A stretch of 64,000 bases of DNA from an uncultured Eubacteriales bacterium (GCA_934454405.1 CAKSFN010000006.1:10503-74502), one strand, 5' to 3'. Counted from the stretch's first letter, positions 10,249 to 62,833 are shown. The notes: generated from the letters alone by a model not told the origin. Translations and numbers: made by a program.

Positions 10249-10395
10249 GCCGCCGCGCTTTCGTTCCGCCGGACGCTCTGCCGCCGCGATTTCGCTTCGC
10301 CGAACGCTCTGCCGTCACGATTTCACTTCGCAGGACGCTCTGCCGCCGCGTTTTCGCTCCTCCGAACGCTTCGCCGCCGCGTTTTCGCTTCGCCG
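10249..10395. repeat. 5 x 31-bp GC-rich tandem repeat
   Basis: Units of the form CCGCCGCG(A/T)TTTCGCTTCGCCGAACGCTCTG, read directly after the addA stop. Confidence 0.85.
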
Positions 10396-10412
10396 AAAAA
10401 AAATATTAAGAT

Positions 10413-17011: not shown

Positions 17012-17036
17012 CTCTTGCTTTGTATATCTTTGTTTT

Positions 17037-17136
17037 TTGTGCAGTCAACTGCACAAAGTCGTAAAAATCGTGCGTTTTGTGCAGTCAACCGCACAAATAT
17101 ATAAAAATCATCTGTTTTATGCAATCAACTGCACGA
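17037..17136. promoter_or_regulatory. Three 20-bp palindromes phased exactly 40 bp apart
   Basis: TTGTGCAGTCAACTGCACAA (17037), TTGTGCAGTCAACCGCACAA (17077) and TTATGCAATCAACTGCACGA (17117), with 9-bp arms and a 2-nt centre. Confidence 0.6.
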
Positions 17137-17282
17137 ATTTGCAACAGGGGTTATCGGCAAGAATAAAATATTTTATACTGTTAAATCGTGTGATTTTCGC
17201 TGTTGAATTTACCGTTTATTGCCGATAACGGCAAAGAACGAGCATTGTTTTATTATCCAGCCTTTTTTGTTATTGAAATTGA

Positions 17283-24300: not shown

Positions 24301-24873
24301 TCACAGCGCGTAAAACAGCACGCCCAGCACCGCCGAAAACAGAAGCAGGATTATAGGGGAGAGTTGCTTTTTGCGCAGCAGTTTGTATCCTGCGGCAGCG
24401 GCGCCGATAACCGCAAACATCACAATTCTCTTGATGTTCGGCGCAAAGCCCGAGCCGACGGCGGAAAAGCCGAAAAGCGTTTCAAGCGCCATAATAAGCG
24501 CCGTTGCAAGTATCATCGCGATTATGCACGGGCGAATGCCGTTCAGAAATGCCTGCACGCCGCCGTATTTCATCAGCCGCTTCATCGCAAGCGCAATAAG
24601 CGAAATGATGATAAAAGACGGAAGCACGACCCCGAATGTCGCCGCAAGCGCGCCGAAAAAGCCGCCCTGTGTCGAGCCGACGAACGTCGCCATGTTTATC
24701 GCAAGAGGTCCGGGTGTCGATTCCGAAACCGCTATCATATTAAGAAATTCACTTTCGGCAAGCCACTCATTTGAGATAACGGTCTCGCGTATCAGGGAGA
24801 TCATGCCGTACCCGCCCCCGAAAGAGACCGTGCCTATCATCAGAAAATTGAGAAAGAGTTGAAGATATATCAT
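24301..24873 (-). CDS. chrA: Chromate transporter family protein (second half-size subunit)
   Basis: 190 aa, multi-TM. N-terminal FGGGYGMISL motif typical of the CHR family, paired with 25505-26104. Confidence 0.85.
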   Translation of the reverse strand: MIYLQLFLNFLMIGTVSFGGGYGMISLIRETVISNEWLAESEFLNMIAVSESTPGPLAINMATFVGSTQGGFFGALAATFGVVLPSFIIISLIALAMKRLMKYGGVQAFLNGIRPCIIAMILATALIMALETLFGFSAVGSGFAPNIKRIVMFAVIGAAAAGYKLLRKKQLSPIILLLFSAVLGVLFYAL

Positions 24874-25004
24874 TTTCTATCGCCTCTTTCTGTCGTTAAT
24901 ATAAAATCTTTTATTCATCTTGCGGATTTCTTTTTGTTTTTGTAAAAGGTATTGTTTTTATGGGTTTACGGAAAGATTCATAATATATCTGCTGTGCCTG
25001 AAGA

Positions 25005-25440
25005 GTGCATAGCCTTTTTCTTTCCGCTTTGCGGAGTTTGCGTCGTTTTTCGCAGGCGAAAAGCCGAGCAAACAGTATTATCCGATTTTGGGCGAAGAAA
25101 AGCCCGTTTTCACAAGCCTGACAGTGTTGCTTTTGCCCTGTTTTATTGTCTCGTCGCTTAAAATACGAAAGTATTCTCGCACTCCTCGACTTCAAAACAG
25201 AACAAAATCAAGGCTGTCAGGTCGAAGAGTTTCACGGAGATAATGTTTTTCTCCGTGAAACGGTCACTTTGAAGCAATACTTTGTGTATTGCAAGAAGTG
25301 AACGCAATGCGGAGGGAAAGATTAGCCCGTGAAACCTTATGAGAACGGACTTTTCTTCGCCCTTACGCCGTGCGATAGTTCGTTCCTTCGAACGAACCGC
25401 ACATGGCTAATCGCAAAAAATGCAGCGGCTTTTTTGCGAT
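25005..25440 (+). repeat. Structured interspersed element, family 1, copy A (carries a nested insert)
   Basis: Its 79-nt left part and ~75-nt right part are near-identical to 26421-26585. The right part is the core ACGCCGTGCGA-[hairpin]-CGCACATGGCT-[hairpin]. Confidence 0.8.
25090..25362. repeat. Nested ~273-bp insert closed by an inverted repeat
   Basis: GGGCGAAGAAAAG(C)CCGTT..CAC at 25090 pairs with GTGAAAC...CGGACTTTTCTTCGCCC ending at 25362. It is absent from copy B. Its internal blocks match the insert at 62208-62482. Confidence 0.75.
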
Positions 25441-25508
25441 GCCGTAACCGCCCCGAAAGAGACCGTGCCGATCATCAGAAAATTGAGAAAGAGTTGAAGA
25501 TATATCAT
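25439..25508 (-). pseudogene. Duplicated, frame-broken 5' fragment of the downstream chrA
   Basis: 70 nt matching 24803-24873 with 2 substitutions and a 1-nt deletion. It keeps the ancestral ATGA overlap with the stop of the upstream chrA. Confidence 0.8.
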
Positions 25509-26104
25509 TTTTTGCCCCCTCTTTCCCGACATCTGCCGATAAGGTAGACCGCCACTCCGAGCGCGCCGCATATCAGAATGTAGAAAATCGAGGAGAACGA
25601 AACGGAGAACAGCGAAACCGCTGTCATGGCAGCCGCGACCGCGACAGCCACCGCGATATTGAACGCGTTTTTCTTCATTTCTTTCAGCATTTTCAGCCCT
25701 GCCGAGAATATCAGAAAGACCACTCCGACCCGTATGCCCTCAAATGCATAGCGGACGTATTCAAGCCCGAGGAATCTGTCCAAAAACAGCGAAATGACAT
25801 AGATTATAAAAAACGACGGCATACATATCGCCAAAGTCGCAACCGCCGAACCCGCAAGCCCGGCGATTTTACTTCCGATATAAGTCGCCGCGTTGACCGC
25901 GATGGGTCCCGGCGTCGATTCGGCGATAGCAACTATATCGAGGAACTCATCCTCGTCTATCCAATTCTTTTTGCCGACCAATTCGGCTTCCAGCAGGGCA
26001 ATCATTCCGTAACCGCCGCCGAACGTGAAAGCCCCGACCTTGAAAAAGGTGAGAAAGAGCGTCAAAAGGTTTTTAAGCTTGCTGTTTTTCATATTGTTTG
26101 ACAT
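25505..26104 (-). CDS. chrA: Chromate transporter family protein (first half-size subunit)
   Basis: 199 aa, multi-TM, with the FGGGYGMIALLE motif. Confidence 0.85.
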   Translation of the reverse strand: MSNNMKNSKLKNLLTLFLTFFKVGAFTFGGGYGMIALLEAELVGKKNWIDEDEFLDIVAIAESTPGPIAVNAATYIGSKIAGLAGSAVATLAICMPSFFIIYVISLFLDRFLGLEYVRYAFEGIRVGVVFLIFSAGLKMLKEMKKNAFNIAVAVAVAAAMTAVSLFSVSFSSIFYILICGALGVAVYLIGRCRERGGKK

Positions 26105-26182: not shown

Positions 26183-26234
26183 CCGCCGCTCAACTCTCGC
26201 AACGACGCTTCGCGCCGTCCGAGGTTTCGCGGAA
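26183..26234. repeat. 52-bp GC-rich repeat, copy 1 of 3
   Basis: CCGCCGCTCAACTCTCGCA.CG.C...CGCGCCGTCCGAGGTTTCGCGGAA. Further copies are at 27248 and 27408. Confidence 0.75.
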
Positions 26235-26420
26235 AACAAAAAAGATACCATTGTTCAGAAAAACAAACCAAAAGTAATTGATGTTTTTTTTCGGTTATAT
26301 CGGCAAGTGCGAAAAGTGTTTGCGGAGCAAACAGGGGAATTGCTGAAAAGACGAAGCTATTTGTTAAATACGCAAAGTACGGAATCTGTTAGCTGAAGCA
26401 CACAGGGGACTCCCCGAAAT

Positions 26421-26585
26421 GTGCATAGCCTTTTTCTTTCCGCTGCGCGGAGTTTGCGTCGTTTTTCGCAGGCGAAAAGCCGAGCAAACGGTATTATCCT
26501 ATTTTTATACGCCGTGCGATAGTTCGCGCATACGCGCAAACCGCACATGGCTAATCGCAAAAAATGCAGCGGCTTTTTTGCGATG
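26421..26585 (+). repeat. Structured interspersed element, family 1, copy B (no nested insert)
   Basis: Same left and right parts as copy A. The inner hairpin differs (GCGC-ATAC-GCGC versus GTTCGTTC-CTTC-GAACGAAC) but stays paired. It ends 1 nt before the stop of the next gene. Confidence 0.8.
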
Positions 26586-27247: not shown

Positions 27248-27299
27248 CCGCCGCTCAACTCTCGCATCGGCACGTCGCGCCGTCCGAGGTTTCGCGGAA
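27248..27299. repeat. 52-bp GC-rich repeat, copy 2 of 3
   Basis: Near-identical to 26183-26234. Confidence 0.75.
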
Positions 27300-27407
27300 G
27301 GCCGAACGATACCGCATATATTATATATTAAATCAACGAAAAAAACAAGTTACTGTTTACATAATTCCTGTAAAGATCCTGTAAATTACATAAATCTTTC
27401 CGTTTCT

Positions 27408-27459
27408 CCGCCTCTCAACTCTCGCATCGGCACGTCGCGCCGTCCGGGGTTTCGCGGAA
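27408..27459. repeat. 52-bp GC-rich repeat, copy 3 of 3
   Basis: CTCAACTCTCGCATCGGCACGTCGCGCCGTCCGGGGTTTCGCGGAA. Confidence 0.7.
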
Positions 27460-27556
27460 AGCCGTATCATATATCACTTTTTATGGGCTGTCAAATCAAC
27501 AAAATTCTGTTTTTTGCTTATTTTTGAAGCATAAACCCTGTTTGGTTCTTGGTTTT

Positions 27557-43382: not shown

Positions 43383-44152
43383 TATTTCTTTCTCTTGGAA
43401 ACTCGGCTCCGCTTCGGTGGGGTCGAGTTTCATTTTAATAATATATATGAAAGTATTTAGTTTGCGCAGGGAAAAATAGTTCGGCGAAATAAATTCGCCG
43501 AAGACCGGTCGATCCGATACGCCGTGCGAAATTGTTGCTGCGCAACACGCACATGGCTGTTCTCAAAACGGCGGCGCGTTTTGAGATTTTCTTTCTCTTG
43601 GAAGAGGGGCTTCACTTCGGTGAAGTTTCTCTTCATTTTAATAATATATATGAAAGTATTTAATTTGCGCAGGGAAACATAGTTCGGCGAAATAAATTCG
43701 CCGAAGATATATTGATTTGATACGCCGTGCGAAATTGTTGCTGCGCAACACGCACATGGCTGTTCTCAAAACGACGGTGCGTTTTGAGAGTTTCTTTCTC
43801 TTGGAAGTGCGGCTCTGCTTTTGCAGGGTCGCGCTTCACTTTATTTATATGTATTGTATTTAAGTGTTTAGTTTTCGCAAGGAGTAATAGTTCGGCGAAC
43901 TAAATTCGCCGAAGACCGGTCGATCCGATACGCCGTGCGAAATTGTTGCTGCGCAACACGCACATGGCTGTTCTCAAAACGGCGGCGCGTTTTGAGAGTT
44001 TCTTTCTCTTGGAAACTCGGCTCCGCTTCGGTGGGGCCGAGTTTCACTTTATTCTCTTGGAAGTGCGGCTCCGCTTCGGTGGGGTCGAGTTTCATTTTAA
44101 TAATATATATGAAAGTATTTAGTTTGCGCAGGGAAACATAGTTCGCCGAAGA
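43383..44152 (+). repeat. Tandem array (about 3.7 units of 203-208 bp) of hairpin-dense, apparently non-coding units
   Basis: CTCTTGGAA recurs at 43392, 43595, 43798, 44006 and 44054. Each unit holds 5 hairpins in a fixed order. The first hairpin has three unrelated but fully paired sequence variants. Confidence 0.9.
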
Positions 44153-45054: not shown

Positions 45055-45168
45055 AAAAAAATCTTTCGGAATGAAAATCCAAAATCCTGCGGAATGAAAC
45101 CTCGAAATCTTTCGGAATGAAATCACGAAATCCTGCGGAATGAAATCTTGAAATCTTTCGGAATGGTA
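45055..45168. repeat. 5 x 23-bp tandem repeat abutting the -35 box
   Basis: CGGAATGAAA at 45067, 45090, 45113, 45136 and 45159 (the last copy is degenerate: CGGAATGGTA). Units alternate CTTTCGG and CCTGCGG, giving a 46-bp super-unit. Confidence 0.85.
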
Positions 45169-45197
45169 TTGATATTTTTCAAAAATTGTGGTATACT
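45169..45197 (+). promoter_or_regulatory. Sigma-A type promoter
   Basis: TTGATA-17 nt-TATACT. Confidence 0.6.
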
Positions 45198-61679: not shown

Positions 61680-61709
61680 AAAAACAGTCCTCGAAAGAGG
61701 GCTGTTTTT
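61680..61709 (+). terminator. Rho-independent terminator after tRNA-His
   Basis: AAAAACAGTCCTC-GAAA-GAGGGCTGTTTTT. Duplicated at 62153-62182. Confidence 0.75.
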
Positions 61710-61720
61710 GCTTTTGGGAC

Positions 61721-61881
61721 GGGTAAAGGAATTAACGAACCTGTTTCGCGCAGCGAAACAAGGTTCGTCGCAGCAGCGATTTTTGCAAAGCAAAAATCGA
61801 CTGTGAAGTCGCGAGTGAGCAAAAAACTTCGGGCACCGCATCAGCGGTCGAAGTTTTGTGAAACGCAGCGTACCCCTTTAC
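61721..61881 (+). repeat. 161-nt cloverleaf-like structured element, family 2, copy 1
   Basis: Closing stem GGGTAAAGG/CCCCTTTAC around three hairpins: ACGAACCTGTTTCGC.., CGATTTTTGC-AAA-GCAAAAATCG and AAAACTTCG..CGAAGTTTT. Confidence 0.8.
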
Positions 61882-61946
61882 TCGGCGTAAAGTTTTGATA
61901 AGACAAAAATAAATGAAATGTTGCGGTTGTTTTTTATTTTCGGGGT

Positions 61947-62107
61947 GGGTAAAGGAATTAACGAACCTGTTTCGCGCAGCGAAACAAGGTTCGTCGCAAC
62001 AGCGATTTTTGCAAAGCAAAAATCGACTGTGAAGTCGGGAGTGAACAAAAAACTTCGGGCACCGCATCAGCGGTCGAAGTTTTGTGAAACGCAGCGTACC
62101 CCTTTAC
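61947..62107 (+). repeat. Family 2 element, copy 2
   Basis: Differs from copy 1 at 3 positions by eye. Its 5' flank GGGGTGGGTAAAGGA is the complement of the tRNA-His 3' end. Confidence 0.8.
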
Positions 62108-62152
62108 ATTGCATGAAGTTATAACAAGGCAAAAAAGGGAAAATTGACGAAA

Positions 62153-62182
62153 AAAAACAGTCCTCGAAAGAGGGCTGTTTTT
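62153..62182 (+). terminator. Duplicate of the tRNA-operon terminator
   Basis: Identical hairpin and downstream GCTTTTGGGACGGGTAAAGG as at 61680-61729. Confidence 0.7.
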
Positions 62183-62193
62183 GCTTTTGGGAC

Positions 62194-62628
62194 GGGTAAA
62201 GGGATTTGGCTGAAAATGACCGAACTCTCATCGGTTTTGACGGGCTGATTTTCGCCCTGACTTTCGCAAAAGCCTTGTAAATACGTCAAGTATTCACTAC
62301 GGCTTTTTTGTCGTTATGACAAAAATCCGCACCGTGAAAACTGCCGGCACCCGCCACAGAGAAATTTTCGAGGAATTTTTTCTTTTTGAGACGCAGGCGG
62401 GCTGACGCCCGCCAAGACGAAAAGAGAGAAAATAACCGAAAATAGCCTGTGTCGGGCGATAAGAGTTCGGTCATTTTCAGCCGTTAACCTGTTTCGCGCA
62501 GCGAAACAAGGTTCGTCGAAACGGCGGAAAAAGGAACTTTTTCCGACCGTGAAGTCGCGAGTGAGCAAAAACTTCGGGCACCGCATCAGCGGTCGAAGTT
62601 TTGTGAAACGCAGCGTACCCCTTTACCC
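62194..62628 (+). repeat. Family 2 element, copy 3 (swapped middle hairpin, carries a 275-bp nested insert)
   Basis: Same closing stem (GGGTAAAGGG/CCCCTTTACCC) and outer hairpins. The middle hairpin is replaced by CGGAAAAAG-GAA-CTTTTTCCG. Confidence 0.8.
62208..62482. repeat. Nested 275-bp insert with perfect 21-bp terminal inverted repeat
   Basis: GGCTGAAAATGACCGAACTCT (62208-62228) and AGAGTTCGGTCATTTTCAGCC (62462-62482). Its internal blocks match the insert at 25090-25362. Confidence 0.8.
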
Positions 62629-62833
62629 TGCGTAAAGTTTTGATAAGACAAAAATAACGGCAGGATTTCCTGCTCGTGGAAGCGCGACGGCGGCAAGGTC
62701 ACCTTTGAAATAAGCGTTCCTCCCAACACTTCCGCGCGTTTTTGCGCCTGCGGTGTTGACAGGGAGCTCTCTGTCGGCGCGAATGTGATTGAGGCTGAAA
62801 TAAACTGAAACGAACGCGCAATTTAGCTGTTAT

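Follow-up and report, generated by a model that had tools for sequence, protein, structure and literature searches.

A probably mobile, MITE-like repeat family with a covarying hairpin core in gut and rumen Clostridia

Two inserts and their host repeats

The window, by which is meant the whole 64-kb stretch of DNA that was analyzed, carries two small inserts, one in the spacer between chrA-N and chrA-C and the other in a tandem repeat downstream of a tRNA cluster. The genes neighboring them encode the ChrA halves, Sm_multidrug_ex, RNase HII, peptidases, HTH/DUF6036 and Fic. An earlier note, made from the sequence of the window, had placed the inserts at 25090-25362 and 62208-62482, inside repeats whose other copies lack them, and had seen no credible ORF in either. 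The coordinates were confirmed, and only chance ORFs of at most 62 aa overlap either insert. The note's observation that the inverted repeats closing the two inserts are unrelated in sequence also held: their arms are complementary over 27 nt (89%) in insert 1 and over 26 nt (96%) in insert 2.

Insert 1, a long element of 273 nt (H-type), sits at the seam between two separable modules of host repeat family 1. In the interrupted copy A of this family, module Y lies to the left of the insert (24997-25089, 92% identity to 26413-26505) and module X to the right (25364-25441, 91% identity to 26508-26585), while copy B (26413-26585) is uninterrupted and provides a paralogous empty site, ATTTT-TA-TACGCC. 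The arms of the closing inverted repeat lie at 25090-25116 and 25336-25362 and also pair in the predicted folds. Four gut-metagenome contigs of the same species (L001-L004; retrieved loci are given L numbers) were found via the ChrA protein adjoining the insert. The chrA-N/chrA-C spacer is filled in the window and in L002 and L004, where the insert is 99% identical, and empty in L001 and L003, which lack exactly the 273 nt of insert 1 and carry module X without its partner module. With E denoting the element, the empty ATTTT-TA-TACGCC becomes ATTTT[E]T-TACGCC in the filled site, leaving TTT on the left and TTA on the right. All H-type copies, at no fewer than four loci, lie between the same two family-1 modules and have identical immediate flanks (GATTTT on the left, TTACGCC on the right). 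The identity of these flanks favors a single original insertion, after which, to judge from the sequences, the family-1 composite was probably spread or swapped between alleles. Insert 1 was thus probably carried, or exchanged between alleles, within the composite rather than freshly transposed, and the polymorphism of the chrA spacer could reflect allele exchange instead of transposition.

Family 1 itself is a dispersed composite, with X alone, Y-X and Y-H-X arrangements at several loci (24997-25441 and 26413-26585 in the window, L001:2871-2953, and in L126, L133, L136 and L138). Two versions of the X hairpin, GTTCGTTC..GAACGAAC and GTTCGCGC..GCGCAAAC, differ by fully compensated changes and are shuffled among filled and empty copies. 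Two other repeats occur nearby. The start of the chrA C-half gene (its 5' end) is present twice, as a 75-bp direct repeat (24816-24890 and 25451-25525, 93% identity) that flanks the family-1 block; the duplication leaves a 33-codon pseudo-start behind chrA-N and is seen also in strains without insert 1. A GC-rich repeat of 77 nt on the minus strand is found upstream of chrA-N (26183-26259) and twice upstream of the Sm_multidrug_ex gene (27248-27324 and 27408-27484). It resembles a leader or riboswitch-type element, its sole Rfam match, to GA-cis, being weak and below threshold at 20 bits, and the copy before chrA-N is absent from L001 and L003.

Insert 2, a long element of 275 nt (I-type), interrupts copy 3 (62153-62657) of host repeat family 2. 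Copies 1 and 2 (61680-61912 and 61906-62138, together 61680-62138) are insert-free and show the empty site, GGAATT followed by AACGAACC, against GGAATTT[E]GTTAACC in the filled copy, with TTT on the left and GTTA on the right. The closing arms lie at 62208-62233 and 62457-62482. The insert is also present in L005, L006, L128 and L132. Family 2 consists of 226-nt tandem units directly after tRNA-Gly, tRNA-Arg and tRNA-His, three of them in the window (61680-62657) and four in L005 (5143-6346). A four-way fold is predicted for each unit (z = -5.9), each unit also has a hairpin covarying between copies, and no Rfam family matches the repeat. The 5' end of the family repeats, in inverted orientation, the 3' end and trailer of tRNA-His, arranged around a common terminator-like hairpin. 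A tRNA-like nature of the repeat was considered and rejected: ARAGORN and Rfam find no such gene, and the predicted fold pairs those bases otherwise. In L006 (5670-6100, compared with 62208-62700 of the window), the left arm of insert 2 is fused to the right arm and flank of another I-type copy, that of L139; on the sequences compared, this is a recombination between dispersed I-type copies that alters gene order downstream of the tRNA cluster.

The flanks GATTT(T) and (G)TTA reported in the earlier note are present at both inserts, although they do not amount to a clean target duplication. The note had further read the sites as loops of structured elements. They are indeed predicted to be unpaired, AT-rich junction strands. 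The TWA triplets that, as described below, mark the insertion points are found in such junctions amid GC-rich stems, where an element seeking TWA would land in any case, and insertion into loops therefore needs no special explanation.

Homology of the inserts and the fold of the core

Both inserts contain the internal blocks described in the earlier note, namely GCCCTG and an AAATACG..AGTATTC hairpin (25161-25176 and 62279-62295). The latter is the best local block when the two are aligned with each other, yet 49 of 500 dinucleotide shuffles score at least as high in local alignment, and the global alignment lies at a z of about 3 above shuffles. The homology proposed in the note therefore cannot be claimed from pairwise alignment and was instead established with a covariance model, R2, trained on short elements of other organisms only, with nothing from the window or its species. 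Run on the 64-kb window with filters off, R2 gave exactly four significant matches (E from 9e-9 to 9e-7), corresponding to both arms of each insert; the next match, at the tRNA-His/terminator palindrome, had E = 0.006. This pattern implies that each insert consists of a closing stem enclosing the same ~90-nt core hairpin twice, in opposite orientations, an arrangement not recognized in the earlier note.

In insert 1, core copy 1 spans 25126-25216 on the plus strand (32.9 bits, E = 1.1e-7), with GCCCTG at 25135-25140 and the apical module AAATACGAAAGTATTC at 25161-25176. Copy 2 is inverted, at 25235-25326 on the minus strand (34.2 bits, E = 4.4e-8), and its apical module, in the minus-strand reading, is CTTGCAATACACAAAGTATTGCTTC. 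The same copy is matched by a second covariance model, R1 (E = 3.8e-7), from whose training set 25235-25326 was absent. In insert 2, copy 1 lies at 62244-62334 on the plus strand (36.3 bits, E = 9.2e-9), with GCCCTG at 62254-62259 and the module AAATACGTCAAGTATTC at 62279-62295, and copy 2, inverted and shortened, at 62368-62436 on the minus strand (30.1 bits, E = 8.8e-7). The module of this last copy (62392-62416, minus strand) reads CTTGGCGGGCGTCAGCCCGCCTGCG, where the family module is CTTGAAATACGTCAGTATTCCTGCG: flanks and loop are those of the family, while the stem is wholly exchanged for G-C pairs (AAUAC/GUAUU to GCGGGC/GCCCGC). It is the most telling core for the homology of the two inserts, which by the family model are homologous despite a marginal pairwise similarity. 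The same core(+)/core(-) layout recurs in a third long type (G-type, 277 nt) in roe-deer and sheep gut MAGs.

Either strand of each insert is predicted to fold at about -125 kcal/mol (z about -12) into the closing stem and two long arms. Among 24 diverse cores, 84% of cells are standard-paired, as compared with 68% in column shuffles and ~40% with slid partners, and two-sided changes occur in 103 cells as against 36 in shuffles. What is conserved in the core are the internal loops (GCCCUG opposite CAGAAC, and CGUUA opposite GCCU) and the 25-nt apical module, while the stems vary. The closing stem behaves similarly: between I-type copies at two sites, six of six differences are compensated on the opposite arm, and the outer GGCTGA/TCAGCC is invariant. 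Together with the R2 matches, this agrees with the conserved core and covarying closing stem envisaged in the earlier note. The terminal inverted repeats of the inserts (~26-30 bp) keep constant outermost bases within a subfamily (GGGCGA... or GGCTGA...); across the family, in copies collected by the core pattern, they are more diverged than the interior. In usual MITEs the pattern is the reverse, with terminal repeats less diverged than the interior, and the combination of a covarying interior hairpin with diverging yet self-complementary ends is unusual for such elements.

The wider family and its short forms

A scan for the core pattern in species-representative genomes, one per species, gave more than 116 loci, with ~17 expected by chance if base composition is taken as uniform; many lie at contig ends. 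Within 0.62 Mb of these loci, R1 found 140 matches. Among the matches listed, those judged real come nearly all from Clostridia MAGs labeled Ruminococcus, Oscillospiraceae, Flavonifractor or Lawsonibacter, and two rumen/gut Clostridia MAGs, RUG10904 and RGIG604, have dozens each, often at contig ends. A metagenome scan for the pattern gave 16 loci and a scan of viral contigs only two hits; plasmid records gave none. Much of the evidence on the family comes from short-read MAGs. Full-text searching of the literature, with the module sequence and for MITEs of these groups, returned nothing specific, and the family is matched by no Rfam family and by no paper found in that search.

The typical member is short, ~165 nt, with a terminal inverted repeat, a single core and the matching repeat; this high-copy short form had escaped the earlier note. 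Terminal arms of relatives measure 21-30 nt, and their tips differ by subfamily (GGAACTGT, GGAATCGT, GAGCCAGTTT, GAACCTGTAT, GGGTGTATC, GGGCGATG and GGCTGA), with the core kept in all. The flanks of 80 distinct short copies are TAA/TAA in 37 and TTA/TTA in 31, i.e. identical in 68 of the 80, and mixed in 6; the identical flanks indicate a 3-bp TWA target duplication. Copies of the long types G and H are mostly flanked by TT..TT. Long forms, too, occur at distinct places, the I-type at no fewer than four sites, the G-type at five ends or more, and the H-type at the four or more loci described above. The further copies in relatives for which the earlier note had proposed to search were hence found; the autonomous, protein-encoding relative, also named there as a search target, was not, in ~0.9 Mb of retrieved loci.

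Short elements are numerous in RUG10904, where many deletion derivatives persist, as do at least 13 copies of a 75-nt mini form made of the terminal repeats without a core. In the short elements of this MAG (L012-L124), internal deletions nearly always begin or terminate at an edge of the 25-nt module: of the 24 deletions other than the mini form, 23 have an end that falls no more than 4 nt from consensus positions 64-67 or 89-95 (for example L080:5182-5291, L057:4933-5039 and L075:1397-1527). The module is tandemly duplicated in some copies, and there are ‘solo left halves’ that end, and contigs that break, at the module. Such breakpoints may result from cleavage of the palindrome at its hairpin tips, from site-specific nicking or, in part, from short-read assembly.

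The conserved fold raises the question of whether the core is a functional structured RNA, i.e. a cis-regulatory element, a processing site or a small RNA, that was spread by, or co-opted from, mobile DNA. The covarying stems, the conserved internal loops and apical module, and the complete exchange of one module stem with flanks and loop kept would all suit an RNA, as would the presence of one core per orientation in the long forms. Between co-directional genes (L009-L124, rough ORF calls), the core also has the sense of the genes in 21 cases and the opposite sense in 7. If the core were such an RNA, the inserts would alter what is transcribed from the chrA operon and from the repeats downstream of the tRNAs. 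This is nevertheless unlikely. There is no Rfam family for the core, both strands fold equally well and the evidence from G-U versus A-C pairs points both ways, the core-less mini form and the many deletion derivatives persist in RUG10904, and copies lie in coding sequence and in all gene contexts.

A self-splicing intron, a retron ncRNA or another retroelement RNA is barely credible. The general look of the inserts, with a long closing stem and internal hairpins, is what speaks for this reading, and the earlier note had entertained an intron-like or mobile RNA. At gathering score, Rfam matches three tRNAs only in the whole window, and a permissive search (E up to 10) over both insert regions gave nothing relevant and no intron, ribozyme or retron-like match. 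No reverse transcriptase, maturase or other protein gene of the kind accompanies the inserts, the relatives have terminal repeats and target duplications, and the two strands, as noted, fold alike. This part of the note was not upheld.

Mobility, mechanism and known repeat families

An insertion into a gene is seen for a sister copy of insert 2. An I-type element, 95% like insert 2, splits dpaB/spoVFB, the gene for dipicolinate synthase subunit B, in L130 (6099-6373) and in L145 and L146 (1989-2263), whereas the gene is intact, and the allele empty, in L143 (1959-2085) and L144 (590-716). The interrupted gene is found on two diverged backgrounds, L130 on the one hand and L145/L146 on the other, and protein clusters of the intact and interrupted forms have 601 and 70 members, so that roughly one in ten catalogued sequences carries the interruption. 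The element takes the place of the C-terminal ~29 residues and supplies the stop codon. At the junction, the empty GCA-TTAA-AG or GCG-ATAA-AA becomes GCA-CC[E]CC-AA, so that WTAA is replaced with the total flank length unchanged and without a duplication. Because this copy lies in unique coding DNA without a host repeat, it represents a true insertion and not an optional domain of a larger RNA, an alternative that the earlier note had left standing and that is also contradicted by the other copies in unrelated intergenic DNA. Empty and filled sites between strains, which the note had proposed to look for, thus exist both at the chrA spacer and at dpaB.

Taken together, we consider it probable that the inserts are long-form members of a MITE-like family of non-autonomous DNA transposons of gut and rumen Clostridia. 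The case for mobility rests on the presence/absence between strains at the two loci and on copies at unrelated loci. The MITE-like mobile element suggested in the earlier note fits well with these empty and filled alleles, with the terminal inverted repeats and with the TWA duplications of the short relatives, and the inserts themselves show terminal inverted repeats, a small non-coding size, unrelated loci and orthologous presence/absence. The empty sites of insert 1, insert 2 and the dpaB copy each have TWA at the insertion point, as the short forms prefer, although the long-form junctions are non-canonical, without a clean target duplication. Integron attC sites, IS200/IS605, piggyBac (TTAA) and a serine recombinase were considered for these junctions, and none fits all three empty/filled comparisons. 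The copies in the genome of the window are few and old-looking.

Alternatively, the inserts here could be immobile relics, their presence or absence being due to homologous recombination or gene conversion between repeat copies. This reading is doubtful overall, but several observations speak for it, namely the identical flanks of H-type copies inside the Y/X composite, the shuffling of the adjoining X hairpin variants among filled and empty copies, and I-type copies whose left and right arms do not match and whose flanks are exchanged (L006, L131 and L135), which point to recombination between copies. On the other hand, the dpaB copy has no surrounding host repeat, so at least that one was truly inserted, and recombination accounts for the maintenance of copies rather than for their origin.

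If the inserts belong to a DNA transposon family, a DDE transposase of the IS5 or PIF-Harbinger type would move them in trans; such enzymes generate 3-bp TWA (TNA) duplications. The core would then be a cis-acting subterminal end domain of the parent element, acting as a folded single strand, since the stems covary and one is fully swapped while loops and flanks are kept. With one core at each end of the parent, the inverted pair of the long forms would be accounted for, and the core(+)/core(-) layout is what loss of the coding middle would leave of an autonomous element whose two ends shared this structured subterminal domain. Extrusion of the elements as hairpins in vivo may also contribute: it would keep the closing arms complementary while they drift, and would account for the deletion hotspots at the loop-stem junction in the high-copy rumen MAG. 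In the ~0.9 Mb of retrieved loci, no autonomous partner with a transposase and matching ends was seen. The ORFs between inverted copy pairs (L045, L075 and L053) and beside ‘solo halves’ (L012) are ordinary host genes only, and self-BLAST of the retrieved genome loci gave no repeated segment of 450 bp or more resembling an insertion sequence.

A different kind of enzyme may also be considered. The inserts might be hairpin elements handled as single-stranded DNA by a structure-recognizing enzyme, such as a HUH/RAYT-like nuclease of the kind acting on REP/REPIN elements, or a tyrosine or serine recombinase, in which case the terminal repeats would be a mere stem and the apical module with its flanks would be the site of recognition or nicking. 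The closing stems and one module stem keep their structure rather than their sequence, the long-form junctions lack a target duplication, and the RUG10904 deletions cluster at the module edges in the company of module duplications and ‘solo halves’. We nonetheless regard this as very unlikely, as the short forms have clean 3-bp TWA duplications and IS5/Harbinger-like tips, the signature of a staggered cut by a DDE enzyme, and no HUH or recombinase gene was seen beside the copies; the breakpoint hotspots can also be explained by host nucleases cleaving the hairpin tips of a long palindrome. A related proposal, in our judgment quite unlikely, makes the ~90-nt core a strand-specific folded signal, in ssDNA or RNA, that is itself the determinant of mobility, with an enzyme that reads its shape and a few unpaired bases and nicks beside the module. 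Were this true, the terminal repeats would be free to drift while pairing, the chemistry of the enzyme would have left its traces in the breakpoint hotspots and in the non-canonical junctions of the long forms, and the family would represent a structure-guided class of bacterial mobile elements, distinct from transposons defined by the sequence of their terminal inverted repeats.

Viewed as non-autonomous transposons, the elements come closest to the Tourist/mPing MITEs of the PIF/Harbinger group and to bacterial MITEs of the IS5 family. They share with these the small size, the lack of ORFs, the terminal inverted repeats, the 3-bp TWA (TAA/TTA) duplication of the short forms, and a high copy number with many internal-deletion derivatives; the tips GAGCCAGTTT and GAACCTGT also resemble ends of the GGxCxxGTTT type. 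They differ in that no partner transposase was found in the loci retrieved, in that the long forms of the window lack a clean duplication, and in that the ends vary strongly by subfamily whereas the internal hairpin of ~90 nt is conserved and covaries. The Correia elements of Neisseria and the ERIC/IRU elements of enterobacteria are likewise repeats of 100-300 bp with long hairpins in intergenic or intercistronic positions, come in a long and a short version distinguished by an internal block, and are co-transcribed with neighboring genes. Those families have conserved ends, and Correia elements a TA duplication; there is no sequence similarity to the elements described here, which consist of two inverted copies of a covarying core. 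Three features set the present family apart from both the Tourist/IS5-type MITEs and the Correia/ERIC repeats: a covarying core retained by subfamilies whose ends diverge, a long form with two cores, and irregular junctions of the long forms.

Bacterial repeats of two other kinds share some of these properties. REP/REPIN sequences mobilized by RAYT resemble the elements in being hairpin repeats with an inverted doublet as the unit, structure kept over sequence, and intergenic dispersal. REPINs, whose two units are paired to one another, lack terminal repeats as well as a target duplication, carry a conserved 5' tetranucleotide and have a cognate RAYT. Here, by contrast, each unit folds alone, no RAYT was seen beside the copies, and the TWA duplications of the short forms argue against membership in this group. 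Rickettsia palindromic elements are similar as palindromes of ~100-150 bp whose insertion is tolerated in genes, coding sequence included. They are usually inserted in frame, whereas the dpaB copy brings a stop codon, and sequence and host are unrelated.

The elements add a widespread repeat family to the gut and rumen Clostridia. Repeats of this kind break MAG assemblies, mediate rearrangements and can disrupt genes, as is seen for the copy that truncates dipicolinate synthase B in a subpopulation. The pattern of conservation offers a handle on the interplay of hairpin extrusion, repair and transposition in bacteria. The covariance model is a simple tool for annotating the elements, which may otherwise pass for novel structured RNAs in comparative scans.

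The window holds several repeats beyond those discussed above. At 43385-44150 there are three to four tandem units of ~203 nt; every unit contains a hairpin, covarying from copy to copy (GGAAACTCGGCTCCGCTTCGGTGGGGTCGAGTTTC versus GGAAGAGGGGCTTCACTTCGGTGAAGTTTCTCTTC). Short tandem repeats are found at 10249-10403 (period 31 nt), 17035-17154 (40 nt) and 45059-45173 (23 nt).
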